NCBI GenBank assembly: GCA_038231455.1
Contig: JBBRLI010000028.1
Coordinates: forward strand, 1 to 39,472
Origin: Vulcanimicrobiales bacterium
GTDB lineage: Bacteria; Vulcanimicrobiota; Vulcanimicrobiia; Vulcanimicrobiales; Vulcanimicrobiaceae
Direction: 5' to 3'
DNA length: 39,472 nucleotides
The notes beneath the pieces were generated by a model, which was not told where the DNA came from, searched no databases, and saw nothing but the letters and a program-made list of their open reading frames with translations. A program made the translations under genes and the position numbers. Shown piece after piece: positions 10,867 to 23,240 of the stretch (the first letter of the stretch is position 1; each line of letters opens with the position of its first letter).

Positions 10867-10998
10867 TTACTTCAGAATCAGGACCACGCCAAGCGAAGTG
10901 ATCACGAAAAACACCAGCAAAATCCAGACGCCGATCTTGAGCGCGACATTGCGGCGCGAGCGCTTGGCGCGCGGTTCGTAGTCTTGATCGCGCATCAT
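10867..10998 (-). CDS. Small single-pass membrane protein (43 aa)
   Basis: MMRDQDYEPRAKRSRRNVALKIGVWILLVFFVITSLGVVLILK. ATGA overlap with the rsfS stop; fills the rsfS-TPM gap. Confidence 0.75.
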   Translation of the reverse strand: MMRDQDYEPRAKRSRRNVALKIGVWILLVFFVITSLGVVLILK

Positions 10999-11336
10999 GC
11001 TTCGCTCGCGCGCGGCTCGGGGATGGCACCCCACAGGCGTTCGAGGTTGTAGAACGCGCGCTGTTCGGGCGTGAAGACGTGAACGATCACGTTGCCAAGA
11101 TCGATCAGGATCCAGCCGCCGTCGGAATAGCCCTCGGTGCGGGCGACATGAAAGCCGTTCTCGCGGGCCTTCTCGGTGATGCCGTCGGCGATGGAACGCG
11201 TCTGGATCTTCGAGCGGCCCGTCGCGATGACGAACGAATCGGCAACGATCGTGCGCCCCGCTAAATCCAGGACGACGACGTCTTCGGCTTTCTTGTCGTC
11301 TGCGGCGTCGCGGACGATGTCTAGGAGGTCAGGCAG
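10995..11336 (-). CDS. rsfS: Ribosome silencing factor RsfS (probable CTG start)
   Basis: DDKKAEDVVVLDL...DSFVIATG...EG...WILIDLGNVIVHVF...RAFYNLERLW. 113 aa from CTG 11336, with GGGAG SD upstream. Confidence 0.93.
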   Translation of the reverse strand: MPDLLDIVRDAADDKKAEDVVVLDLAGRTIVADSFVIATGRSKIQTRSIADGITEKARENGFHVARTEGYSDGGWILIDLGNVIVHVFTPEQRAFYNLERLWGAIPEPRASEA

Positions 11337-11928
11337 GGGTCTTCTCCCGGTCGATCGGCGGTACCGCGAAGGTCGCGGCGGCGGCGAGGGTTTGAGGGGC
11401 GATCGCAAGCTTGCGGTCGCGTAAGTAGACGATGGTGGACTGGAGCACGACGTGCATCGCGCCGGCGAGATCGCGCCGGGCAAGCTCGGCGTAGGCCGCG
11501 CGCTCGGGATACTCGCGTCCGGGTTCGAGGGCATCGGCCAAGTAGACGATGATGTCGAGCGGCGTCATCGCGGCTGCCGCTACGGTATGGTTGCGGATGG
11601 CTCGAAGAATCGCCTCGTCCTTCACGCCGAATTGGCCTGAGGCAAGCTCTGCCCCAAGGCGCGCATGGAGCACCACCGGGCTAGCACGCTCGAAGTCGTC
11701 GATCGCTAGTCCGCGCTCGCCGCACTCAGCGAGTAAGCGATCGCTTGGATAGAGGCGAGCGAGGTCGTGGTAGAGGCCGGCAAGCCGCGCGGGCAGCGGA
11801 TCGAGGCCATGTGCGTGCGCTAGGGACGCCGCGAATCGCGCGACGCGCAGAACGTGCGCGTAACGATGATCCTGCGCCAGGTGCGCGCGGACGGATCGTG
11901 CCGCCCGGACGAACGCGATGCCGGTCAG
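11329..11928 (-). CDS. yqeK: HD-domain Ap4A hydrolase YqeK (probable CTG start)
   Basis: Frame extends upstream of the track ORF: RYAHVLRVA...AGLYHDLAR...LHARLGA...NHT...YLADALEPGR. 199 aa from CTG 11928; adjacent to rsfS. Confidence 0.88.
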   Translation of the reverse strand: MTGIAFVRAARSVRAHLAQDHRYAHVLRVARFAASLAHAHGLDPLPARLAGLYHDLARLYPSDRLLAECGERGLAIDDFERASPVVLHARLGAELASGQFGVKDEAILRAIRNHTVAAAAMTPLDIIVYLADALEPGREYPERAAYAELARRDLAGAMHVVLQSTIVYLRDRKLAIAPQTLAAAATFAVPPIDREKTPA

Positions 11929-12773
11929 TTTGGCACGACCTCGCGATAAACGGTCGCCGCGATCGGACGTTCGCCGAGCATCGCACGCTTGAACGCATCC
12001 TCGCGCAGCGCCACCGTTCCGCGCGCATCGGATGCCGGATCGGCGCTTGGAATTGCAACGTCGACGCTGCGTACGATCCCGCGATCGTCGAGTTTCAAGC
12101 GCGCGACGAACCGGCGTTTGTCATCGCCGGTGTACGACTTGAGTTTGGTGCGGCGGATGGTCGGTGCGACATATGCGAATTGTTTGGTAAGCGGGTCGTC
12201 GGCAATCAGGCCGAGTGCGACGAGCGTCCCACGAGCGCCGAAAACCGAGCGTTCGAGCACGTGAGATTTCGGATTGAAGAAGAGCACGCATTCGAGCGTC
12301 GGCGCCAAGCGCAGTGCACGCGTGCTGCGGCCGCCGTAATCGAGAACCGATGCAAACGTGACGTCGGTCTGTTGATCGGTGAGTGTGCCGAAGTCGAGCT
12401 TCTTCGGGCGTCCGTCGAGGTCGATCGTGGCAGCCGGAGCAAGCGCCCCGATCGGCGCAAGGTCGATTGCTTGGACGCGCGCGTCGTCGTTCACACTGAG
12501 TTTGAGCGTGCCAATCGCCGTCATCCACATGAAGATGTGCCCGCGATCCGTCGAATCAACGGCCGTCGGCGGACCACCCATTTGCTTTGCAACCTCGGCT
12601 GCGGGCGAACCAAGTGCGATGCCGTAAAAACTCTCTGCGGCAGATGCAACTTGCGGAAGAATCGCGGTGCCAAGTGCGAGGACGAGGGCGGTTAGCGTGC
12701 GTTTCGTGCGAGTGCTTCTTTCAGGACGCGCAGGCGGCTCGCGTAGAGTTCGCCTTTGAGATTGCCCGCCCAC
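11925..12773 (-). CDS. Exported protein with degenerate TonB C-terminal-like domain
   Basis: Signal peptide KRTLTALVLALG...VASA. C-terminus LKLDDRGIVRSVDV..S....D......AFKRA..GERPI resembles TonB_C. Start uncertain (GTG 12773 or about 12707). Confidence 0.6.
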   Translation of the reverse strand: MGGQSQRRTLREPPARPERSTRTKRTLTALVLALGTAILPQVASAAESFYGIALGSPAAEVAKQMGGPPTAVDSTDRGHIFMWMTAIGTLKLSVNDDARVQAIDLAPIGALAPAATIDLDGRPKKLDFGTLTDQQTDVTFASVLDYGGRSTRALRLAPTLECVLFFNPKSHVLERSVFGARGTLVALGLIADDPLTKQFAYVAPTIRRTKLKSYTGDDKRRFVARLKLDDRGIVRSVDVAIPSADPASDARGTVALREDAFKRAMLGERPIAATVYREVVPN

Positions 12774-13240
12774 ATGACGAGTGCGTTTTCATTATTGTCG
12801 CTGTAATAGCCGCGCCGCGTCGAAACGATCGTGAAGCCGTATTTGCGATAGAGTTTTTGCGCGACGTCGTTTGACTCGCGCACTTCGAGCGTGATCCACG
12901 ATGCCCCGCGCGCGATCGCTTGATCGAGCAAGAAGATCAGCATCTCTTCGCCGCGCTTTTGCCCGCGCAAATCCGGATGCACGGCGATCGTCGTGATGTG
13001 CGAATCTTCGAGGATCACCCAGATGCCGCCGTACGCGACAATTTTATTGTCGAGTCGGCCGACGAAGTAGTGCGCGAGTTTATTGTCGTTGATTTCGTTT
13101 GCAAAAGCGTTTGCCGGCCACGAGGAGCTAAAGGAAAGCGCCTCGATTTTGAGCACCGCCGGAATGTCGGCGGCGACCATCGGGACGATGACCAGGCGTC
13201 CGGGCTGCGCGGAACCCGGCGGTTCGAGTTCGGCTTTCAT
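12692..13240 (-). CDS. rimI: Ribosomal protein S18 alanine N-acetyltransferase
   Basis: HITTIAVHPDLRGQKRG, LEVRESN, LYRKYGF, RRGYYSDNNENALVM. Follows tsaB with an ATGA overlap. Confidence 0.93.
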   Translation of the reverse strand: MKAELEPPGSAQPGRLVIVPMVAADIPAVLKIEALSFSSSWPANAFANEINDNKLAHYFVGRLDNKIVAYGGIWVILEDSHITTIAVHPDLRGQKRGEEMLIFLLDQAIARGASWITLEVRESNDVAQKLYRKYGFTIVSTRRGYYSDNNENALVMWAGNLKGELYASRLRVLKEALARNAR

Positions 13241-13887
13241 CGCGTAACGGCGGGAACCGTGACCGCCGGAAGTTCGCCGTAATCCGGGCGTAGGGCGTGG
13301 ACGGATGCCGCCGGCTCGCGCAGGCGTGCAAGTTCGGCGATCGCGACGGCCGGAATATCGGCCCGTGACGGGAGCAGACGCACAGTGATCCCGCGTTCGG
13401 CGATTGCGTCGCGCACGTCCTCCGTCATGCCCGCAAGCGCGAGGCTTCCTTGAATATTTTCAAGCAATTCGTCGAGGACGTCCGCCGTGCGTCCGCACGC
13501 AATCGCTTCGCGGCCACTCGTACGCAAACGCGCGCAGATGATCCCGGTGCGTCCCGAGACGACGCTAAGAACCGGGAGCGGCGCGACATCGGGTGTGAGC
13601 GTATCGTACGATGAAACGCCGACGAGCGGTAACCCCGCTCCGAACGCGAGCGACTTCGCATAGGCCACGGCAATACGCAAACCGGTGAAGCCGCCCGGCC
13701 CGATGCCCACGGCGATGCGATCGCATTCGTCGAGCCCCAGACCCGCTTCATCGAGCACCGCTTTGATGCGCGCGATCCCCGCTTCGAGCGCGTTGTTGCC
13801 AACCGCGCGATCGGCGATGCGGCGATCGTCATCGACGAAGGCAACGGAAAAACCGCCGATCGCGCCGTCGAGCGCGAGGACGCGCAC
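13237..13887 (-). CDS. tsaB: t6A biosynthesis protein TsaB
   Basis: MRVLALD, IAVGIGPGGFTGLRIAVAYAKSLA, C-terminal LRPDY. Confidence 0.92.
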   Translation of the reverse strand: MRVLALDGAIGGFSVAFVDDDRRIADRAVGNNALEAGIARIKAVLDEAGLGLDECDRIAVGIGPGGFTGLRIAVAYAKSLAFGAGLPLVGVSSYDTLTPDVAPLPVLSVVSGRTGIICARLRTSGREAIACGRTADVLDELLENIQGSLALAGMTEDVRDAIAERGITVRLLPSRADIPAVAIAELARLREPAASVHALRPDYGELPAVTVPAVTR

Positions 13888-14294
13888 TAGGTTGCGCTCA
13901 CGATCCGCGGCTCATCGCCGCTGCCCGCGATGCGCACGCTACGGGCGCCGGCCGGAATGAGGTCGGGTAGGCGTTCGGGCCATTCAACTAACGTGATCGC
14001 GTCCGCTGTAAAGGCCTCTTCCAGCCCCAGCTCCGTGCGTTCGGCCGGGTCGTCGATGCGATAGAGGTCGAGGTGATTGACGATCGTCTCCGTGCCGTAG
14101 CGGTGCCAAAACGTAAATGTGGGGCTCGTCGCAAGGTCGCTGCCGCAGATCTCTTGCACGATTCCACGAATGAACGTGGTTTTTCCGGCACCCAGTCCCC
14201 CATGGAACGTGACGACGTCGCCCGGCCGCAAGCTTCGTGCGAAGCGCTGCCCGGCAGCAAGTGTCGCCCCGGGGCTACCGAGCTTTTCGTGCAT
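13887..14294 (-). CDS. tsaE: t6A biosynthesis ATPase TsaE
   Basis: 135 aa from ATG 14294. GGLGAGKTT, SPTF, HLDLYRI, VEWPE. Confidence 0.94.
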   Translation of the reverse strand: MHEKLGSPGATLAAGQRFARSLRPGDVVTFHGGLGAGKTTFIRGIVQEICGSDLATSPTFTFWHRYGTETIVNHLDLYRIDDPAERTELGLEEAFTADAITLVEWPERLPDLIPAGARSVRIAGSGDEPRIVSAT

Positions 14295-14337
14295 GCTGCA
14301 AAATGATACGTTAGACGAGAGCGAGAACCTAGGGCAT

Positions 14338-14565
14338 GTGTCGATTCGCGTCAACGACGTTATCGTCGGGATCATAACCGGTGCGATCTGTTCGGTCTTC
14401 GCAGCGGGGTTCGAAGCCTTTGTCATGTCGATCCGTATTTTTTCGTTCGGCCATATCGGCGGTTCGTTCGGGTCGAAGTTTTTGGTCGTGTTGATCCTTG
14501 GAGCGATCGCCGGTGCCGTGATCGGTTGGCTGGTCGGCTCGGTCGTGAAACCGCGGGCCTCGTGA
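14338..14565 (+). CDS. Small two-TM hypothetical protein
   Basis: 75 aa from GTG 14338. Two Gly-rich hydrophobic helices; GTGA overlap with the next ORF. Confidence 0.65.
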   Translation: MSIRVNDVIVGIITGAICSVFAAGFEAFVMSIRIFSFGHIGGSFGSKFLVVLILGAIAGAVIGWLVGSVVKPRAS

Positions 14566-14894
14566 ATATGAACGGGACCGAACGGTCGCTCGAACATCTT
14601 CAGGCCATCGACGCCGCGTACCACGGCGACCTCGAAGCCGTGCGCGCTCGTGCCGCCGAGGCACACACGGCGATTGCCGAGGGCGGCATGCATCTGAGCG
14701 ACCTGGCCGCGCCCGCCGTTGCAGAGCGCGCAATGGATTCGTACCGGGCTCCCGCCGATGAGTGGTCGGTCGACGATTTGCCGCTCGGCAATTTCCCCGA
14801 AGATTCGCCGCCGCCGGCGGCGACTGCAGCCCAGCCGATCGAGGCCAACGCGTTCGTCACCGACGACGACGGAATTCCGATCTGGCAAGACTAG
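14562..14894 (+). CDS. Acidic hypothetical protein
   Basis: 110 aa, coupled to the upstream stop; fills the gap before gyrA. Ends TDDDGIPIWQD. Confidence 0.65.
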   Translation: MNMNGTERSLEHLQAIDAAYHGDLEAVRARAAEAHTAIAEGGMHLSDLAAPAVAERAMDSYRAPADEWSVDDLPLGNFPEDSPPPAATAAQPIEANAFVTDDDGIPIWQD

Positions 14895-14936
14895 CTGAGC
14901 GCAGCCTAAGCTGCACTCGAACTCCCAGGAAACGAC

Positions 14937-17468
14937 ATGAATAACGACATCATCTCCACCATCAACGTCGAAGACGAGATGCGGGAGAGCTACCTCTCGT
15001 ATGCGATGAGCGTCATCGCGGGCCGTGCGCTGCCCGATATCCGCGATGGTCTCAAACCCGTCCAACGTCGCATCCTCTACGCGATGCGCGAGATGGGCAT
15101 GACGCCGGACAAGCAGCATCGCAAATGCGCCGGTGTCGTGGGCGAAGTGCTCAAGAGTTACCATCCGCACGGCGATAGTTCCGTGTACGACGCGCTCGTG
15201 CGTATGGCGCAAGATTTCACGCTGCGTTATCCCCTCATCGATGGCCACGGAAATTTCGGTTCGATCGACGGCGACCGTGCGGCAGCGTACCGATATACGG
15301 AAGCGCGTCTCGCGCGCGCCGCGCTCGACACGCTTGTCGACATCGAAAAAGAAACCGTTCCGTTCGTCCCCAACTTCGATAATCAAGGCGAAGAGCCGAC
15401 GGTATTGCCGGGCAAACTACCGCAGCTGCTGATCAACGGTTCCTCCGGCATCGCCGTCGGTATGGCAACGAACATCCCGCCGCACAACCTCGGCGAAGTC
15501 GTCGACGCGATCGTTGCGTTCCTCGATAACGAAGAGATCACCGACGACGAACTTGCCGACATCGTGCACGGGCCGGACTTCCCGACCTACGGTACCGTGA
15601 TGGGCAAAGAAGCGATCCGCACGGCATATCTGACGGGCCGCGGTTCGGTCACGGTGCGCGGCAAAGCCGAAATCATCGAGGAAAAAGGCCGCTTCAAGAT
15701 CGTCATCACCGAAGTGCCGTTCCAGGTGACGAAGTCTCGCATCGTTGAGGCGATCGCTGAGGCGCACGCCGAGAAACGGATCGGCGGGATCGTGCGGCTC
15801 GACGATGAGTCGAACCGCCACGGCATGAAAGTCGTCGTCGAACTCAATCGCACGGCGACGCCGAACGTGGTGCTCAACCAGCTCTACAAACATACCCCGC
15901 TGCAGACGAGCTTCGGTTTCAACATGCTCGCGCTCATCCCGACGAACTTCGTTGCGGTCGATCGCAACGCAACGGCAGAAGCCATTCGCGACTCCGTGAG
16001 CGGCGCGCTCGAACCGCACGTCGTCAGCCTCAAAGATCTGCTCATGTATTTCATCGCGCACCGTCGCACGGTCGTCGTGCGGCGCGCATATTACGAGCGC
16101 CGTAAGGCGGCGGAACGCCTGCATATCCTCGAAGGCTTCCGAATCGCCCTCGACAACATCGATGAAGTCATCGCGCTCATCCGTTCGAGCGATACGACGG
16201 ATGAAGCCAAAGGCAAACTGACCGCGCGCTTCGGCCTTAGCGATATTCAGGCAAATGCCATCGTCGACATGCGTCTGCGCACGCTCGTCGGCCTCGAACG
16301 CAAGAAGATCGAGGACGAGTACAACTCGCTCGTTGCGCTCATTCAAGAGATCGACTTGCTGCTCTCGGAGACGAGTCGGCAGTACGCGGTTATCAAAACC
16401 GAATCGCTCGATCTGAAGAAGCGCTTAGGCGACGAACGCCGTACGCTCATCGTGCCGGCCGAAAACGAATTCGCGATCGAAGACTTCATCGCCGATACCG
16501 ACGTCGTCGTCACCTCAACCGTAGGCGGCTACATCAAGCGCGTCTCGGTCGATACGTTCCGCGCGCAAAACCGCGGCGGACGCGGCGTCACCGGCATCGC
16601 GAACCTCAAAAAAGAAGACGTCGTTCAGAACTTCTTCATCGCGACGACGCACCAGCACATCTTGTTCTTCACGAACAAGGGCCGCGCGTATCGCCTGCGC
16701 GCATACGAAATTCCGGATACCACGCGTCAGGCGCGCGGGACGGCGCTCGTCAACTTGCTCACGCTTCCGCCGGGCGAGATCGTCACCGCCGTCTTCCCCG
16801 TGACGACGTTCGAGGGCGAGAACTATCTTGTCATGGTCACCAAACGCGGCGTCATCAAGAAAACGCTCCTTGGCGGCTTCTCGAACCTTCGCAAGAGCGG
16901 CCTCAACGCAATCGATCTCAATGAGAACGACGAGTTGCTCGCCGTCGACCTCTCCGATGGCACGCGCGATATCATCATGGCAACGCACGACGGTATGGCC
17001 GTGCACTTCAACGAGAAAGACGTGCGTCCGATGGGGCGCAATGCCCGCGGCGTCCGTGCGATCTCACTTGCCGAAGGCGACTCGGTCGTCGCGATGGACG
17101 TTGTCGAAGACGACCGCCGCGAAGTCCTCATCGTCACCTCGCACGCGTACGGCAAACGCACGCCGATCGAGGATTATCGCCACACCCAGCGCGGCGGTAA
17201 AGGCGTCAAGGCGTTCGCAAAAGAGAAAGAAATCGGCCACGTGGTCGACCAGATTCTCGTGCGTCCGGACGACGAACTGATGATGATCACGAGCGGCAAT
17301 CAAGTCATCCGCATCCCGGTCGACCAGATCCGCCGCGCGGGCCGCTCCACCAAGGGCGTCAAGCTGCAGCGTCTCGCCGACGGCGACGAAGTGATCGCGA
17401 TTGCCAACCTCGGTCAGCAATCGAAAGAAATCGCCGAAATCACCGGCGAGCCACCGCCGACTCCGTAG
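14937..17468 (+). CDS. gyrA: DNA gyrase subunit A
   Basis: 843 aa. [23 protein letters not shown] active site, GyrA-box QNRGGRG, beta-pinwheel repeats. Confidence 0.97.
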
Positions 17469-17484
17469 CCTCGTCGCTCGTCGT

Positions 17485-17520
17485 GAGAAAAAGCCGCACC
17501 GGAAATGGCGGCTTTTTCTC
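17485..17520. terminator. Bidirectional intrinsic terminator (gyrA / fic)
   Basis: Perfect 13-bp inverted repeat GAGAAAAAGCCGC-N10-GCGGCTTTTTCTC with A and T tracts. Confidence 0.88.
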
Positions 17521-17584
17521 TGTTCGGCGTCGCCAAGGACGTGGTTGCTTTCGAATGCGCCAACTGCGTGAATAGCAGAAATGG

Positions 17585-18853
17585 CTATTTCTTCATTGGA
17601 CGCTGTTTTGGCCGAGCGGGTACCTCACGTACCGGCTTTGCGACACGCGTGTCGGCCTTCGGACTTGCGAGTCGACGTTCGAGTTCGGTGAACGCGTCAA
17701 AAATTTCGCGAGCTTCAAATCGTCTGTTTCGCCGCGCGCTGTTCGTAGCGGTGAGGATTTCGGATTCGACAAGCCGTTCGATCGCGCCGTTCGCGGTCGC
17801 GAAGGTTTTGCCAAGAACGCGCGCCGCATCTTCGACCCTCAAAATTGGGAGCGAGGGCAGATGCGCGAGGAGTTGACGAGCGCCGGAATCGGAACGTGAC
17901 GACAACTTGCTTTTCCATGCGGCTTGTAGCGATTGTATCGTTCGTTCGAACGATACGGCATCATCGACGGCGCGTCTTGTCGCGACACTAAAGACGGCAA
18001 TCCAATGGTTTAGAGCGGGAATCGCATGCGCGATCGGTCCGTTGACGCGTGTCGCGTCGAGCGCGTTGATGTAGGTCTTTGCTTGAGTTGCGAGCGCAAG
18101 CGAAATCGGCGGGGTGGTTCGCGTTGCAAGTCCACGCCGGCGGAGGACGACGTAGATCAGAGCGCGGCCTGTGCGGCCGTTCCCATCGACGAACGGATGG
18201 ATCGTTTCAAATTGCGCGTGCGCGATTGCCGCCTGTGCCAGCGCGGGCAAATTATCGTTGTTGCAAAACGCACAGAGATCGTTTAAGAGAGCGCGTACGC
18301 ACTCTGGTGGAGGGGGCACGAACGCCGCTCCGATTGGATTGAATTCGTTTCCACCGATCCAGTTCTGCTCGGTTCGCAGCTGCCCGGCGAACTGCGGATG
18401 CTGCGATCCGGCAAGCAGTCGGCGATGGATCTCGATGATCCGTTCGATCGTGAGATCATCGGCGGGATCTTCTAATGCGAAGGCCATCGCGTCGATGTTT
18501 GCTAGCACTTCTCGGGCAGTTGGATCGCTTACCGATTGGTCGGCCATGTAACGAAGCAGGCGCTGCGGCGACAACCGTAAGCCTTCGATGTGTGAAGAAG
18601 CGACGGACTCGGCTCGGAGCAGCAAACGCGCAAGGCCCTCCGTCTCCGTAAGGGTCGCCGCGGTCGCGTCGAGCTTCGCAATCGCCCGTTCGGCGTCGGC
18701 TACATCCGCTGCCACGTCGCCATCAAGCGTTAGTTTGAGTTTGGAGAGTGGGTCCGGGACATAGGCGTCGTACGATCCGCCCTCACGGTATCCGCGCGGC
18801 ATGTCGATTCCGCCAATCGACGTCTCCCAAAAGCGCCGTACCATGCTTCCCAC
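17585..18853 (-). CDS. Fic family protein, class II-like, with probable C-terminal HTH
   Basis: 422 aa. Catalytic HPFVDGNGRTGR and N-terminal inhibitory motif SSHIEG. Confidence 0.93.
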   Translation of the reverse strand: MGSMVRRFWETSIGGIDMPRGYREGGSYDAYVPDPLSKLKLTLDGDVAADVADAERAIAKLDATAATLTETEGLARLLLRAESVASSHIEGLRLSPQRLLRYMADQSVSDPTAREVLANIDAMAFALEDPADDLTIERIIEIHRRLLAGSQHPQFAGQLRTEQNWIGGNEFNPIGAAFVPPPPECVRALLNDLCAFCNNDNLPALAQAAIAHAQFETIHPFVDGNGRTGRALIYVVLRRRGLATRTTPPISLALATQAKTYINALDATRVNGPIAHAIPALNHWIAVFSVATRRAVDDAVSFERTIQSLQAAWKSKLSSRSDSGARQLLAHLPSLPILRVEDAARVLGKTFATANGAIERLVESEILTATNSARRNRRFEAREIFDAFTELERRLASPKADTRVAKPVREVPARPKQRPMKK

Positions 18854-18871
18854 CAGATGTATCCGTCTTTC

Positions 18872-18903
18872 TTATTATAACTTATACAACTAAGTCATAA
18901 TAA
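18872..18903. promoter_or_regulatory. AT-rich palindrome overlapping the putative fic -10 box
   Basis: TTATTATAACTTA-TACAAC-TAAGTCATAATAA (12 of 13 positions complementary). Minus-strand TATAAT at 18879-18874. Confidence 0.65.
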
Positions 18904-18915
18904 AGGCAACTGTTA

Positions 18916-19674
18916 TTACGGCTTCTGGACCACCGGTTCGACGAAATCGCCTCGACCGACAGCCGCAGCCCCGGGAGCCGTCAGGTTGAGGAATGCCTGA
19001 ACTTGCTTGCCGTTGGTTTGGGTGATGACGACGATAACTGCGGGTGAGAGTATGCCGCCTTTGGGATCCGCAAAAATACGGAGTTGGCCTCCGACTTCGG
19101 CGTTCATGTCCGGTACGTCGATGTAGATAAACGGCCCGTCCATCCGCGCGACGCGCGAAAAGAGCCGAAGTGTCAGCGGATGACTGGAAAGCTGCTGGCC
19201 GACTTTGCTCCAGGTGACGGACGTATCGGGCTCGTTGTCGCCTTCGTTGGTGATGCGGTAAAGTTCGCTCATAAGCGGGATGCGTTCGTCGGTCGATTGC
19301 GTGCCGGTGATGCAGTTGCTCACCGTGATGTGCGCCTCGCCGTAGTCGCGTAAGGCGTCTCCCGTTTTCTTGGGCAGTCGTGCGAAGGTTGCGTCGATGC
19401 GGTAAGCAGCGCCGGCCGCCTTGCACGCTTCGGTCGTGGTCGGCGCCGTGGCAACGACCGTTTTTTCGGCGCCCACGTATTCGTCGATGAGATGCGCCCA
19501 GAAGTCGGGGGCGATCGCGCCGGTAGCGCCCTCGGCGACGCTCGTATACACGATGGCGGTGATCGGCGCCCGACGGGCGGCCCCGGCCGGTGAGGCCAGG
19601 GCAAGCGCCAGGACCCCCGAAACTAGCCCGATCCGCGCCGGGTTCCAGAAGTTGGAGGTTATTGAAAACCACAT
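18916..19674 (-). CDS. Exported hypothetical protein
   Basis: Signal peptide GLVSGVLALALASPAGA, two Cys, beta-rich C-terminus. 252 aa from ATG 19674 (start uncertain). Confidence 0.7.
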   Translation of the reverse strand: MWFSITSNFWNPARIGLVSGVLALALASPAGAARRAPITAIVYTSVAEGATGAIAPDFWAHLIDEYVGAEKTVVATAPTTTEACKAAGAAYRIDATFARLPKKTGDALRDYGEAHITVSNCITGTQSTDERIPLMSELYRITNEGDNEPDTSVTWSKVGQQLSSHPLTLRLFSRVARMDGPFIYIDVPDMNAEVGGQLRIFADPKGGILSPAVIVVITQTNGKQVQAFLNLTAPGAAAVGRGDFVEPVVQKP

Positions 19675-20010
19675 ATGAGCGCTCTCCCTGATGTCTCTGA
19701 ACATTCATTCAAAGCCGATGTCCTCGGCCACGACCAGCCGGTGCTGGTCGATTTCTGGGCCCCTTGGTGCGGACCGTGCAAAATGCTCGCTCCCGTCGTT
19801 GAGAAAGTTGCCGGCCAACTCGCCGGTAAGATGAAATTCGTCAAACTCAACACCGACGAGGCGCCCTCACTTGCGGGCCAGTACCAAGTATCCGGCATTC
19901 CTTGCCTGATTCTCTTCAAAGACGGCCAAGCGGTCGACCGTATCGTCGGGTTTGTGAATGAATCGACGATCACGTCGATGCTCAGCAAGCACCTGACGGC
20001 CGCCGCGTAG
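19675..20010 (+). CDS. trxA: Thioredoxin
   Basis: 111 aa. VLVDFWAPWCGPCK; cis-Pro loop GIP. Confidence 0.96.
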   Translation: MSALPDVSEHSFKADVLGHDQPVLVDFWAPWCGPCKMLAPVVEKVAGQLAGKMKFVKLNTDEAPSLAGQYQVSGIPCLILFKDGQAVDRIVGFVNESTITSMLSKHLTAAA

Positions 20011-20017
20011 GGCGCGA

Positions 20018-21382
20018 CTGCACAACAACCTCCGCACCGTCCCAGCCGTCCATCGGCTGACGAGTGACCCCCGGGTCGGCGCGTTTGCCGATCTCCTGGG
20101 ATCCGGAATCACGAAGCGCGCGATCGATGCAACACTCGACCGCGCGCGTTCGCGTGTTCGGGCGGATGGCGGCGATGCGCCGACCCTCGATGCGCTCGTT
20201 GCTGAGGTTGTCGCCCGGCTTACCGACGAAGAATCGCACGGTCTTTTACCGGTCCTCAATGGAACCGGTATTTTGTTGCACACCAATTTGGGCCGCGCGC
20301 CGCTTGCGCCCGCGGCGCTCGATGCGATGCACGCCGTCGCCGGCGGATACTCGAATCTGGAATTCGATTTGGAGTCGGGAGAGCGCGGCTCGCGCTACGC
20401 CCGCACGAGCGCACTTTTACGCGAGACCACCGGAGCCGAGGACAGTATCGTTGTGAACAACTGTGCTGCGGCGATCTTGTTGATCCTCGATACGTTCGCG
20501 AAAGATCGCGAAGTGATCGTCTCGCGTAACCAGCTCATCGAAATCGGCGGCGGTTTCCGGCTGCCCGAAGTGCTGCGCCGCAGCGGCGCGACGCTCGTCG
20601 AAGTCGGCGCGACCAACAAAGTGTACATTGCGGATTTCGCGCGTGCGCTTACCGCACGCACGGCGATTCTCATGCGCAGCCATACGTCGAACTATCGCAT
20701 CGAAGGCTTTACGGCTGATGTTGTGCCCGCGGAGCTTGCCGCACTCGGCAAACGTGCCGGTGTGCCGACCGTGGAAGACCTTGGCAGCGGAACGCTCGTC
20801 GATCTGCGTGCGTACGGTCTGCCATACGAACGCACGGTGCGTGAAGTCGTTGCCGATGGGATCGATCTGGTTGCGTTCTCGGGCGATAAGTTGCTCGGCG
20901 GACCGCAGTCGGGGATCATCGTTGGGAAGACGGCGCTCATCAAACGTTTGCGCGGCAATCCGCTACTGCGAGCTCTGCGGGTCGATAAAGCAACGCTCGC
21001 TGCGCTTGCGGCGACGCTGCGTCTCGCGCTCACGCCCGAAACGATGGTGGAGATCCCGTTCTACCGCATGCTCACAACCTCGCTCGGCACGCTGCGAGCC
21101 CGCGGTGATGTGCTCTGCGAGCGCCTCGCCAAAAGCGCGATCGTCGCGCGCGTTGTCGAGAGTAGTGGCTACACCGGCGGCGGCGCTCTACCACTGACCA
21201 CGTTGCCATCGATCGCCCTCGCGCTTCCGAAGCGCGATCCCAACGCCTACGCGCAGCGCTTGCGGGCGCAGCGGCCGCCGCTGATCGGGCGCGTCGACGG
21301 CGATCGGGTGCTCTTGGATTTGCGCACGTTGCCGCCCGAACGCGACGGCGATGTCGCAACGCTCATCGAACACGTTCGCTAA
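20018..21382 (+). CDS. selA: L-seryl-tRNA(Sec) selenium transferase (probable CTG start)
   Basis: N-terminal LRTVPAVHRL, VLNGTGILLHTNLGRAPL, YSNLEFDL, EIGGGFR, PLP motif FSGDKLLGGPQ. 454 aa from CTG 20018. Confidence 0.95.
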   Translation: MHNNLRTVPAVHRLTSDPRVGAFADLLGSGITKRAIDATLDRARSRVRADGGDAPTLDALVAEVVARLTDEESHGLLPVLNGTGILLHTNLGRAPLAPAALDAMHAVAGGYSNLEFDLESGERGSRYARTSALLRETTGAEDSIVVNNCAAAILLILDTFAKDREVIVSRNQLIEIGGGFRLPEVLRRSGATLVEVGATNKVYIADFARALTARTAILMRSHTSNYRIEGFTADVVPAELAALGKRAGVPTVEDLGSGTLVDLRAYGLPYERTVREVVADGIDLVAFSGDKLLGGPQSGIIVGKTALIKRLRGNPLLRALRVDKATLAALAATLRLALTPETMVEIPFYRMLTTSLGTLRARGDVLCERLAKSAIVARVVESSGYTGGGALPLTTLPSIALALPKRDPNAYAQRLRAQRPPLIGRVDGDRVLLDLRTLPPERDGDVATLIEHVR

Positions 21383-21383
21383 G

Positions 21384-23240
21384 ATGCACATCATCGGTAC
21401 CGCGGGTCACGTCGACCACGGCAAGTCTTCGCTCGTACGCGCCCTCACGGGTACCGATCCGGACCGCTGGATCGAGGAACAACTGCGCGGTATGACCCTT
21501 GACCTCGGGTTCGCGCATTTGCGCTTCCCCGACGGCGTCGATGCAGGGATCGTCGACGTCCCCGGACACGAACGGTTTCTGCACAACATGCTGGCGGGAG
21601 CTGCGGGAATGGAACTTTTGCTGCTCGTGGTCGCGGCGAACGAAGGTCCGCGTCCGCAAACGCTCGAGCATCTCGCCATCCTCGATTACCTCAACGTCAA
21701 GCGCGCGATCATCGTGCTCACCAAGAGCGATCTCGTCGATAAAGAAGAGCTCGCATTCGTCGAAGAACTCGTGCGCGAACAAACGCGTGGAACGCTCGCG
21801 GCCGACGCGCGCGCAATCGGCGTCTCGGTGCTCACGGGCGCCGGACTCGACGACCTACGCGCGGCGATTCACGATGCACTCGTCGAGCTGCCGCGGCGCG
21901 CGCCAGATGCGCCCGCGTTCTTGCCGATCGATCGCGTCTTCGCGCTTGCCGGACACGGGACGATCGTTACGGGGACACTCATGCAGGGCAAGATCGCCGT
22001 CGGCGATGCGCTCACGCTTCAGCCCAGCGGGAAAAACGTACGCGTACGCAGCCTGCAAGTCTTCGGCGAAAAGCGTGAGTCGATCGATGGCGGCGCGCGC
22101 GTTGCAGCAAATATTCCTGGCGTCGATGTTGCCGATATCGTGCGCGGCGACGTACTCGCGGCGCCCGAATTCGCCGCAAGCGACCGCTTCCGCGTGCGCT
22201 TCTCCCCCCGCGCCGATGCGCTCGCCGCGCTGCGTCGCCGTCAGCCCGTGCGCGCCTATATCGGCTCGGCCGAGCTGCTCGGAACGCTCGTCTTCGATGC
22301 CGTGCCGACCGCGACCGATGCGGTCGATGCGCAACTGTTCTTGCGTCGCCCGACAATTGCGTTTCCCGGTGAGACGTACGTCGTGCGGCGTCTCTCACCC
22401 AAAGACTTGCTTGGCGGGGGGACGCTCGAACTCGGCGACGCTCCCCTTGCGGAATCGGCGCACGATGATGCTCCCGACATCGCGGCCGTGGCGCGCGCGC
22501 TGCGCGAAACGCAACTGGTCGCACGCCCAATCAAAGAAATCGCTGCCGTCGCAAACCTGCGCGAAGATCGCGTCGAAGAGATCCTTACCGAACTGATCGC
22601 CGAACGCCGCGCCCGCAAATTGACGAAACCCGTCGCCTACATCGACGGTGCGACGACGGACGTGCTCGTCGCGCGTGTTCTCGACGCGCTGGTGCTCAAG
22701 CATGCTGCCGAACCGTGGAGCCTCGGGCTCACCTCGCTTGCACTCGCACGCCAATTGAGCGTCGATGAGTCGCTGCTCGTGCGCATTCTTGCAAGCTACG
22801 TTGAAGATGCGCAACTCGCGTATCGCGCCGGTTACTATGCAACGCTCGCGTTCAGCCCGCGTCTCTCCGAAGAGCAGCGTGCATTTTTCGACCGCTATGT
22901 CGTCCTCGATCCGACGCAGCCGTTTTTGCCGGGCTCGCTCGACGCGCTCGTAACTGAAGTGAAGCGCACGAAACTCCCCGGAGTTTCGCAAGCGCTCGAT
23001 ACGCTCGTCGCAACCGGTGCCCTCGTCAAGGTCGGCGATGCGGTGTACCGCGGCACGCAGGTGGCCGACGTGCGAGGTCAGCTCGAAGCGTTTTTACGCA
23101 AAGAGAAGCAAATCACGATGGCGCAGTTCCGCGACATCGTCGGCACGTCGCGCAAATATGCGGTTCCACTGCTCGAATGGTTCGACGCTACGGGTGTTAC
23201 GGTGCGCTCGGGCGATCTGCGCATGTTACGCTCGCGCTAG
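21384..23240 (+). CDS. selB: Selenocysteine-specific elongation factor
   Basis: 618 aa from ATG 21384. [30 protein letters not shown]-terminal winged helix [13 protein letters not shown]. Confidence 0.97.

Follow-up and report, generated by a model that had tools for sequence, protein, structure and literature searches.

We examined contig JBBRLI010000028.1 (C28) of assembly GCA_038231455.1, from an uncultured soil/ice Vulcanimicrobiales bacterium of the family Vulcanimicrobiaceae, and refer to this whole stretch of 39,472 nucleotides (nt) as the window. Three conserved genes in the window, yqeK, rsfS and selA, appear to begin outside the canonical set of start codons (ATG, GTG and TTG): the sequence and NCBIfam profiles place a CTG where each protein family begins and leave no usable ATG, GTG or TTG, as a preliminary description of the window had proposed. 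We hold with good confidence that the three genes start at the near-cognate codons described below. The source genome (G000) was assembled from a metagenome (3.71 Mb in 106 contigs), and its closest named relatives are Eremiobacterota/Vulcanimicrobiota bins, for example Ca. Velthaea, Ca. Lustribacter and Baltobacteraceae.

Probable near-cognate starts of yqeK, rsfS and selA

The genes and their proposed start sites are listed here by position in the window.

11329..11928, minus strand: yqeK, HD-domain bis(5'-nucleosyl)-tetraphosphatase; 199 codons from CTG; TIGR00488, E 1.6e-43
11926..11928, minus strand: proposed yqeK start CTG, overlapping the upstream stop TGA (11927-11925) as CTGA
11939..11942, minus strand: GAGG, Shine-Dalgarno-like, 10 nt 5' of the yqeK CTG, a spacing near the upper limit of what is usual
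11917..11919, minus strand: ATC, alternative near-cognate yqeK start three codons past the CTG, with no Shine-Dalgarno motif at a usable distance
10995..11336, minus strand: rsfS, ribosome silencing factor; 113 codons from CTG; TIGR00090, E 9e-35
11334..11336, minus strand: proposed rsfS start CTG, 5 nt before the yqeK stop (11331-11329), giving an 8-nt overlap with yqeK
11344..11348, minus strand: GGGAG Shine-Dalgarno motif, 7 nt 5' of the rsfS CTG
20018..21382, plus strand: selA, L-seryl-tRNA(Sec) selenium transferase; 454 codons from CTG; TIGR00474, E 3.2e-156
20018..20020, plus strand: proposed selA start CTG, 7 nt past the trxA stop and 7 codons past the in-frame stop

Families were tested with NCBIfam equivalog profiles and their curated cut-offs, and domains with Pfam. 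RsfS, YqeK and SelA each cleared the cut-off of their equivalog model over the full length: YqeK residues 18-182 correspond to positions 5-169 of the 173 in TIGR00488 (148.6 bits; cut-off 70.15), RsfS residues 6-102 to positions 3-99 of the 99 in TIGR00090 (118.8 bits; cut-off 56.9), and SelA residues 5-449 to positions 1-452 of the 455 in TIGR00474 (520.7 bits; cut-off 267.9). The NCBIfam matches open 4-14 residues past the respective CTG, and the coding onset, a change-point estimate of codon usage that is blind to start codons, falls 0-2 codons from the CTG in each of the three genes. Because CTG makes up only ~1.9% of in-frame codons in G000, three CTGs at family starts are not expected by chance. 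Each of them also lies within 8 nt of the upstream stop, as had been described: a CTGA overlap at yqeK, an 8-nt overlap at rsfS and a 7-nt gap at selA. All three sites thereby have a ribosome-binding context, taken as either a Shine-Dalgarno motif at 4-11 nt or coupling of stop and start.

The yqeK frame has an in-frame stop at 12121-12123, and the earliest ATG, GTG or TTG after it is GTG 11676, 84 codons past the CTG, which falls beyond most of the HD-domain match (residues 22-136). Read from the sequence, the yqeK start is certainly non-canonical; it is probably CTG 11928 and less likely ATC 11919. At selA, CTG 20018 is the sole codon one base off ATG in the interval that runs from the in-frame stop to the conserved LRxxPAVH motif, and the earliest canonical codon is TTG 20273, 85 codons past the CTG. 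The rsfS frame does hold canonical codons 5' of the CTG, namely ATG (11534) and two TTGs at 66, 49 and 24 codons upstream, all of them within yqeK, while downstream none follows until 77 codons past the start of the profile match.

Start columns among relatives

Loci were compared across 30 related genomes: 18 belong to the family of G000, 5 to a sister family and 7 share only its class; the unpublished genomes G009 and G030 are counted among them, and our conclusions are independent of both. In these alignments near-cognate codons of yqeK, rsfS, selA and truB occupied sites where orthologues have ATG, GTG or TTG. At the yqeK junction, the 19 same-family genomes including G000 showed CTGA in five, ATAA in one, ATGA in five, GTGA in five and TTGA in one, with two unclear, and the sister family showed GTGA in 5 of 5, so that a four-base overlap of stop and start was seen in every readable genome of the two families; class-level loci could not be aligned at this junction. 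At this place one relative (G014) has GTG ACC GGC and G000 has CTG ACC GGC. In G006 the yqeK locus (L030, G006:C3:421651-425040) was found as two matches with one internal TGA, either an in-frame TGA or a change of frame; this split gene may be broken or may reflect an assembly error.

A similar variability was seen at selA, where the CTG shared by G000 and the same-genus genome G001 aligns with ATG or GTG of sister-family genomes. In G016 a CTG stands two codons past the in-frame stop in the column where most relatives have ATG, and selA of G014 and G007 has no canonical codon near the start. The truB start column, read in 18 same-family genomes, was ATG in ten, GTG in three, TTG in one, ATC in two and ATT in two, and three of the four genomes with AUH have an in-frame stop 3-6 codons ahead of it.

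The clearest case was the rsfS start column. In the same family it was CTG in 16 of 19 genomes and ATC, GTG and TTG in one each, with GGAGG or AGGAG 6-9 nt 5' of the column, and in the sister family an ATG stands three codons earlier. We extended the survey to the best 80 loci of a species-representative genome collection, comprising 64 loci of Eremiobacterota type and 16 of Bacillota. The former had CTG with a Shine-Dalgarno motif in 28 cases, ATC with a Shine-Dalgarno motif in 27 and another or unclear start in nine; the Bacillota outgroup had ATG in 12, TTG in two, ATT in one and none in one. Passing between CTG and ATC takes two base changes, by way of either ATG or CTC, yet ATG is almost never kept at rsfS; this pattern suggests selection for a weak start, comparable to that of infC.

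Public gene calls scatter around this column. When 112 of 120 RsfS predictions from relatives were placed on the alignment, 77 began 1-70 residues upstream of the start column, 23 began 1-8 residues downstream and only 12 began at the column itself, so that the systematic mis-annotation anticipated in the preliminary description is real. An exact look-up of the products that a gene finder would give (yqeK from GTG 11676, rsfS from ATG 11534) found neither in the protein collection.

Weak codons were also kept at two other genes. The infC start was ATA in 17, ATC in five and ATT in seven relatives, that is, AUH in 29 of 29, and a GGAG- or AGGA-type motif, read by eye, preceded it in most of them. 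For pth (loci L274-L303), the stretch from the in-frame stop to the GLGN motif lacked a canonical codon in 17 of 30 relatives and held only a GTG, directly ahead of the motif, in six more; ATC, CTG or ATA stood where the family begins. In G000 itself, pth (C7:111429-112046, L165) has a CTG 3 nt past the in-frame TAG of the preceding gene. Judged from these alignments, the predicted start codon drifts between strong and weak at yqeK, selA and truB, and a weak codon is kept at rsfS, pth and infC.

Probable near-cognate starts across the genome

Genes were called with a home-made program that combines codon log-odds with greedy overlap removal and yields 3517 genes at 91% coding density in G000. 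For 3019 of these we scored the loss, defined as the coding score, in nats, forfeited when the start is forced onto the best ATG, GTG or TTG. The loss was at least 6 nats in 93 genes, four of which lie within 10995-21382, and for 40 of the 93 NCBIfam gave a match anchored at the N-terminus (opening at profile positions 1-13). In 25 of these 40 the family match opens upstream of every canonical codon in the frame, the earliest canonical codon being 7-134 codons further on. These strict cases are as follows.

Translation-related: rsmA, truB, an Hsp15-like gene, pth, selA
Cell envelope and shape: mreB, murJ, a diglucosyl-diacylglycerol synthase gene
DNA metabolism: mutY, priA, recG, parA
Transport: nikB, a sugar ABC ATPase gene, a gene for an EmrB-like pump, two urtB-like genes
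Metabolism: genes for a TIGR00282 phosphoesterase, prephenate dehydrogenase, glycerate kinase and phytoene desaturase, rmlC, a merA/lpd-like gene
Other: a sensor kinase gene, yqeK

Seven further genes have canonical codons far upstream only: rsfS, hisB, dapB, infC, an SsuA-like gene, trhA and rlmD. The likely near-cognate starts are CTG in roughly 9-12 genes, ATC in ~7, ATT in ~5 and ATA in three; a few genes of the set are without any NTG or ATH, and prephenate dehydrogenase has an ACG nearby. The resulting share, 25-32 of 3019 genes (0.8-1.1%), is a lower bound covering only genes with a loss of at least 6 nats and an anchored family match. The preliminary description had suggested that this lineage may routinely use CTG. 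CTG does recur at homologous starts, but it is not used alone, since ATC, ATT and ATA are at least as frequent.

As a control, 800 kb of Sinorhizobium meliloti pSymB (62.9% GC, 622 scored genes) was passed through the same pipeline; 50 kb of C. necator pHG1 was left out as a second control because it is rich in integrases and transposases. Twelve control genes had a high loss, two of them frameshifted open reading frames of insertion sequence (IS) elements, and none of the 622 needed a non-canonical start; one case, a sugar dehydratase/epimerase-like gene whose best match is LegB, is ambiguous and has a GTG 29 codons upstream. The profile scan upstream of canonical starts thus gave 25 of 3019 genes in G000 against 0 of 622 in the control, plus the ambiguous one (Fisher p = 0.015 for 25/3019 against 0/622). 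In genes without a nearby canonical codon, CTG, ATC and ATT were enriched 2-4 times at the coding onset, which is only suggestive because the onset estimator favours positive-scoring codons.

Pieces of related genomes contained strict cases as well, at rates close to that of G000: three among 328 genes in G005 (nikB, purU and uptA), one among 222 in G026 (truA), one among 106 in G024 (a urtB-like gene) and one among 146 in the sister family (an ABC ATPase gene). Besides its three strict cases, G005 has a likely CTG start at fmt, and its prfB was rejected as a near-cognate case, being a known programmed frameshift. The nikB/oppB-type permease gene of G000 (C1:407331-408362, L147) and that of G005 (L231:1418-2509) both have a CTG 7-8 nt behind GGAGG, far from an upstream stop; this predicted start is conserved, Shine-Dalgarno-led and outside the translation apparatus.

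Stop codons and Shine-Dalgarno motifs around the starts

The preliminary description had tied the CTG starts to translational re-initiation. While the three genes of the window do lie beside stops, the association genome-wide does not go beyond a trend. The interval from -31 to +10 nt around a same-strand upstream stop holds 19 of 27 near-cognate starts (70%) and 474 of 916 confident canonical ones (52%; odds ratio 2.2, Fisher p = 0.077). Four-base overlaps were seen as CTGA at yqeK and hisB and as ATAG at mutY and one urtB-like gene, and at dapB an ATT follows 1 nt past TAA. Starts of nikB, mreB, rmlC and infC are far from upstream stops and lie behind GGAGG, AGGAG or AGGA motifs. Shine-Dalgarno use is weak in G000 as a whole, with GGAG or GAGG at 4-10 nt in 174 of 789 confident canonical starts, or 195 of 789 with AGGA. 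As about half of the confident canonical starts lie beside a same-strand stop, coupling of stop and start may be the main way in which genes of G000 initiate.

Initiator tRNA and initiation factor 3

G000 has three tRNA-Met(CAU) genes, one of which is a normal initiator: its anticodon is CAU, C1 and A72 are mismatched, and the anticodon stem contains three G-C pairs. The tRNA genes of G000 were also searched for a special initiator, such as one with the anticodon CAG, and none was present. Initiation factor 3 (IF3; C7:133400-134269, L166) can be aligned with solved IF3 chains across its two domains (E 1e-51), and its DYG and FRGRE stretches, which hold known fidelity residues, are conserved. 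With both initiator tRNA and IF3 looking ordinary, there is no sign of a changed code or a special tRNA. The G000 IF3 also has a C-terminal tail of ~70 residues, the family and PDB matches ending ~70 residues before the stop; judging by how long the matches are in relatives, this tail seems to vary.

Neighbouring genes

On the minus strand the order of transcription is rimI, a gene for a secreted hypothetical protein, yqeK and rsfS; on the plus strand trxA is followed by selA and selB.

11925..12707, minus strand: secreted hypothetical protein, the fourth gene without a plausible canonical start (loss of at least 6 nats); candidate ACG start at 12707-12705
19675..20010, plus strand: trxA, thioredoxin; ATG start, TAG stop at 20008-20010; Pfam Thioredoxin, E 2.2e-31
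21351-23240, plus strand: selB, following selA

selA and selB overlap by 32 nt, the distance by which the selB ATG precedes the selA stop, and a tRNA-Sec gene is present in G000. Profile searches gave no family match for the hypothetical protein. Its coding onset (k=27) coincides exactly with ACG 12707-12705, which precedes the rimI stop, counted to its first base, by 13 nt; the product read from this ACG begins as a typical signal peptide. The same ACG is found in G001, together with a CTG that overlaps the rimI stop as CTGA, at a place where G000 has CTA. From its sequence, the hypothetical gene may start at ACG.

Discussion

The most economical explanation of these observations is ordinary near-cognate initiation by formyl-methionyl-tRNA, aided by a Shine-Dalgarno motif or by a terminating ribosome that is already on site. 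On this explanation yqeK, rsfS and selA would be intact, functional genes, and the near-cognate codon would be read by the ordinary initiator tRNA as formyl-methionine. A Shine-Dalgarno motif would help the weak codon at rsfS, and weakly at yqeK, and the adjoining upstream stop would help at all three genes by leaving the terminating ribosome at the site. In this Eremiobacterota class about 1 gene in 100, or more, would then start at CTG, ATC, ATT or ATA. Given the ordinary-looking IF3 and the self-limiting AUH start of infC, the products should be low and should rise when IF3 is scarce. Initiation at these codons, methionine as the first residue and dependence on IF3 are what we infer from the sequences, and the conserved arrangement of infC makes the link to IF3 a reasonable one.

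Several observations weigh against this explanation. At the individual sites, a weak AGGG is the only Shine-Dalgarno-like motif 5' of the selA CTG, and in the protein alignment ATC 11919 of yqeK aligns with the ATG or GTG of most relatives, so that the exact yqeK start codon is uncertain. The genome-wide counts come from a home-made gene caller, some of the 25 strict cases depend on weak matches (for example Hsp15, E 2.6e-8), and the Fisher test gives p = 0.11 once the ambiguous control gene is counted, with a single control replicon of 622 genes. The coding-score proxy alone barely separates the genomes, as a loss of at least 8 nats was found in 58 of 3019 genes in G000 and in 6 of 622 in the control, with 5 of 280 in the second control piece. 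CTGs near coding onsets showed no Shine-Dalgarno enrichment, 4.4% of them having GGAG or GAGG, which is mid-range among codons; this test is weak because only 195 of 789 confident canonical starts carry such a motif. When the 'rescue' of high-loss genes was scored for each of the 58 sense codons outside the canonical three, a test whose resolution is too coarse, CTG and ATT came near the top at only ~1.7-1.9 times a typical codon. We regard an excess of near-cognate starts over the control as likely but not firm, on one control replicon.

Two alternatives would remove the phenomenon from the window altogether. If the CTGs were assembly or sequencing errors, the true codons would be ATG or GTG; G000 is a metagenome-assembled genome in 106 contigs and our check was made on Logan contigs, not raw reads, which leaves some room for this idea. 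We nevertheless give it next to no weight, because the independent same-genus genome G001 shares all three CTGs, which argues that they are not an assembly error, and of 64 loci that come from many studies, 28 carry CTG and 27 carry ATC at the rsfS site. A contig of the source sample showed 0 differences over 10900-16550, and in unrelated ice/glacier metagenome contigs over 11175-11358 (the rsfS start) and 19892-20157 (the selA start) the CTGs were unchanged among the differences listed. It is also quite improbable, in our judgement, that the starts are canonical after all, either downstream with shortened proteins or, for rsfS, at ATG 11534 or the TTGs inside yqeK. The rsfS frame does offer those codons 66, 49 and 24 codons upstream, and public gene calls of relatives often pick such codons. 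Downstream starts, however, would cost YqeK 84 residues, including most of its HD-domain match, SelA 85 residues and RsfS all but ~30, and the frame 5' of the rsfS CTG is not conserved among relatives, whereas a Shine-Dalgarno motif lies 6-9 nt before the CTG or ATC in 55 of 64 loci. In two loci (L005 and L006) an in-frame stop even lies 0-5 codons before the rsfS start column.

Two further alternatives accept near-cognate initiation and differ in what it means. The weak starts may be a by-product of termination-reinitiation, in which the quality of the start codon is little needed; the three CTGs within 8 nt of a stop, the CTGA and ATAG overlaps, the pth CTG at +3 nt, the dapB ATT at +1 nt and the overall 19 of 27 near a stop all fit this. 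We find it doubtful as a full account, since the canonical baseline of 474 of 916 is already high, NikB, MreB, RmlC and InfC start far from stops behind Shine-Dalgarno motifs, and almost every relative keeps a strong Shine-Dalgarno motif ahead of the rsfS start. Start codons may instead be drifting neutrally, with no regulatory meaning, because a lineage that grows slowly selects less strictly on them; such drift is a real possibility, though not a probable one. It is favoured by the weak genome-wide Shine-Dalgarno use and by the start columns of yqeK, selA and truB, which vary freely among ATG, GTG, TTG, CTG, ATC, ATT and ATA between genera. Against it, rsfS (55 of 64), pth and infC hold to the weak codon class over family-to-class distances, and CTG and ATC replace each other at rsfS without a lasting change to the intermediate ATG; both points argue for selection over drift.

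A more speculative extension, which we think rather unlikely as it stands, is an 'IF3 regulon', in which genes that watch over translation share IF3-discriminated near-cognate starts in Eremiobacteria. Its members might be infC, rsfS and pth, with rsmA/ksgA, truB, rlmD, the Hsp15-like gene and selA in G000, fmt in G005 and truA in G026. Eight of the ~32 near-cognate genes of G000 are translation-related, a post hoc count without a measured baseline. If such a regulon existed, a shortage of IF3 relative to ribosomes would cause the silencing factor, peptidyl-tRNA hydrolase and the modifiers of rRNA and tRNA to be made together with IF3.

Whatever their role, such starts matter for annotation. 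Standard gene finders admit only ATG, GTG and TTG, so that ~1% or more of the genes in a phylum known almost only from metagenome bins would receive wrong N-termini, among them conserved housekeeping genes such as pth, rsfS, selA, truB, mreB and priA; such errors distort protein families, the calling of signal peptides and predicted structures. Routine near-cognate initiation alongside an ordinary-looking IF3 and initiator tRNA would also make this lineage a natural system for asking how much start-codon stringency a cell needs and whether weak starts serve as a shared regulatory handle, as in infC, and the conserved weak start of rsfS provides a concrete, testable hypothesis.

Our literature search found nothing on start-codon use in Eremiobacterota and no published report of near-cognate starts at rsfS or pth. 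Among known systems, conserved CTG (rpsL) and ATC (dnaA) starts in Deinococcus were reportedly found by N-terminal proteomics in work of Baudet et al. in 2010. The likeness lies in the conserved near-cognate starts of housekeeping genes; the genes here are different ones and their starts are predicted from sequence. Starts of the same type at rpsL and dnaA of G000 were considered and rejected, as rpsL starts at GTG and dnaA at ATG.

Termination-reinitiation coupling has been described at ATGA and TGATG overlaps (Huber et al. 2019, PMC6728339; review PMC12548453). The four-base overlap at yqeK and the many near-cognate starts on or beside stops resemble that arrangement, whereas the overlapping start here is CTG or ATA, and the available portions of the two articles present ATGA and TGATG only; CTGA, GTGA, TTGA and the word 'non-canonical' do not occur in the available portion of PMC6728339.

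The closest parallel is the infC/pcnB type of start: AUU, AUA or AUC at infC, where IF3 regulates its own synthesis, and AUU at pcnB of E. coli. The Hecht et al. preprint (10.1101/063800) gives ATG, GTG or TTG for 99.95% of the starts annotated in model bacterial replicons, names infC and pcnB as the only exceptions confirmed in E. coli, and puts initiation from AUA, AUC, AUU and CUG at 1-2% of that from AUG. As in those two genes, the near-cognate codon in this lineage can lie behind a Shine-Dalgarno motif and be kept as a weak codon, and the lineage's own infC shows the same arrangement; the difference is that at least 25 other genes, including rsfS and pth, would be involved here and that CUG would be used besides AUH. 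The mechanism is therefore a known one, that of the infC-type near-cognate start, and what is unusual is its frequency and the set of genes in which it is found.

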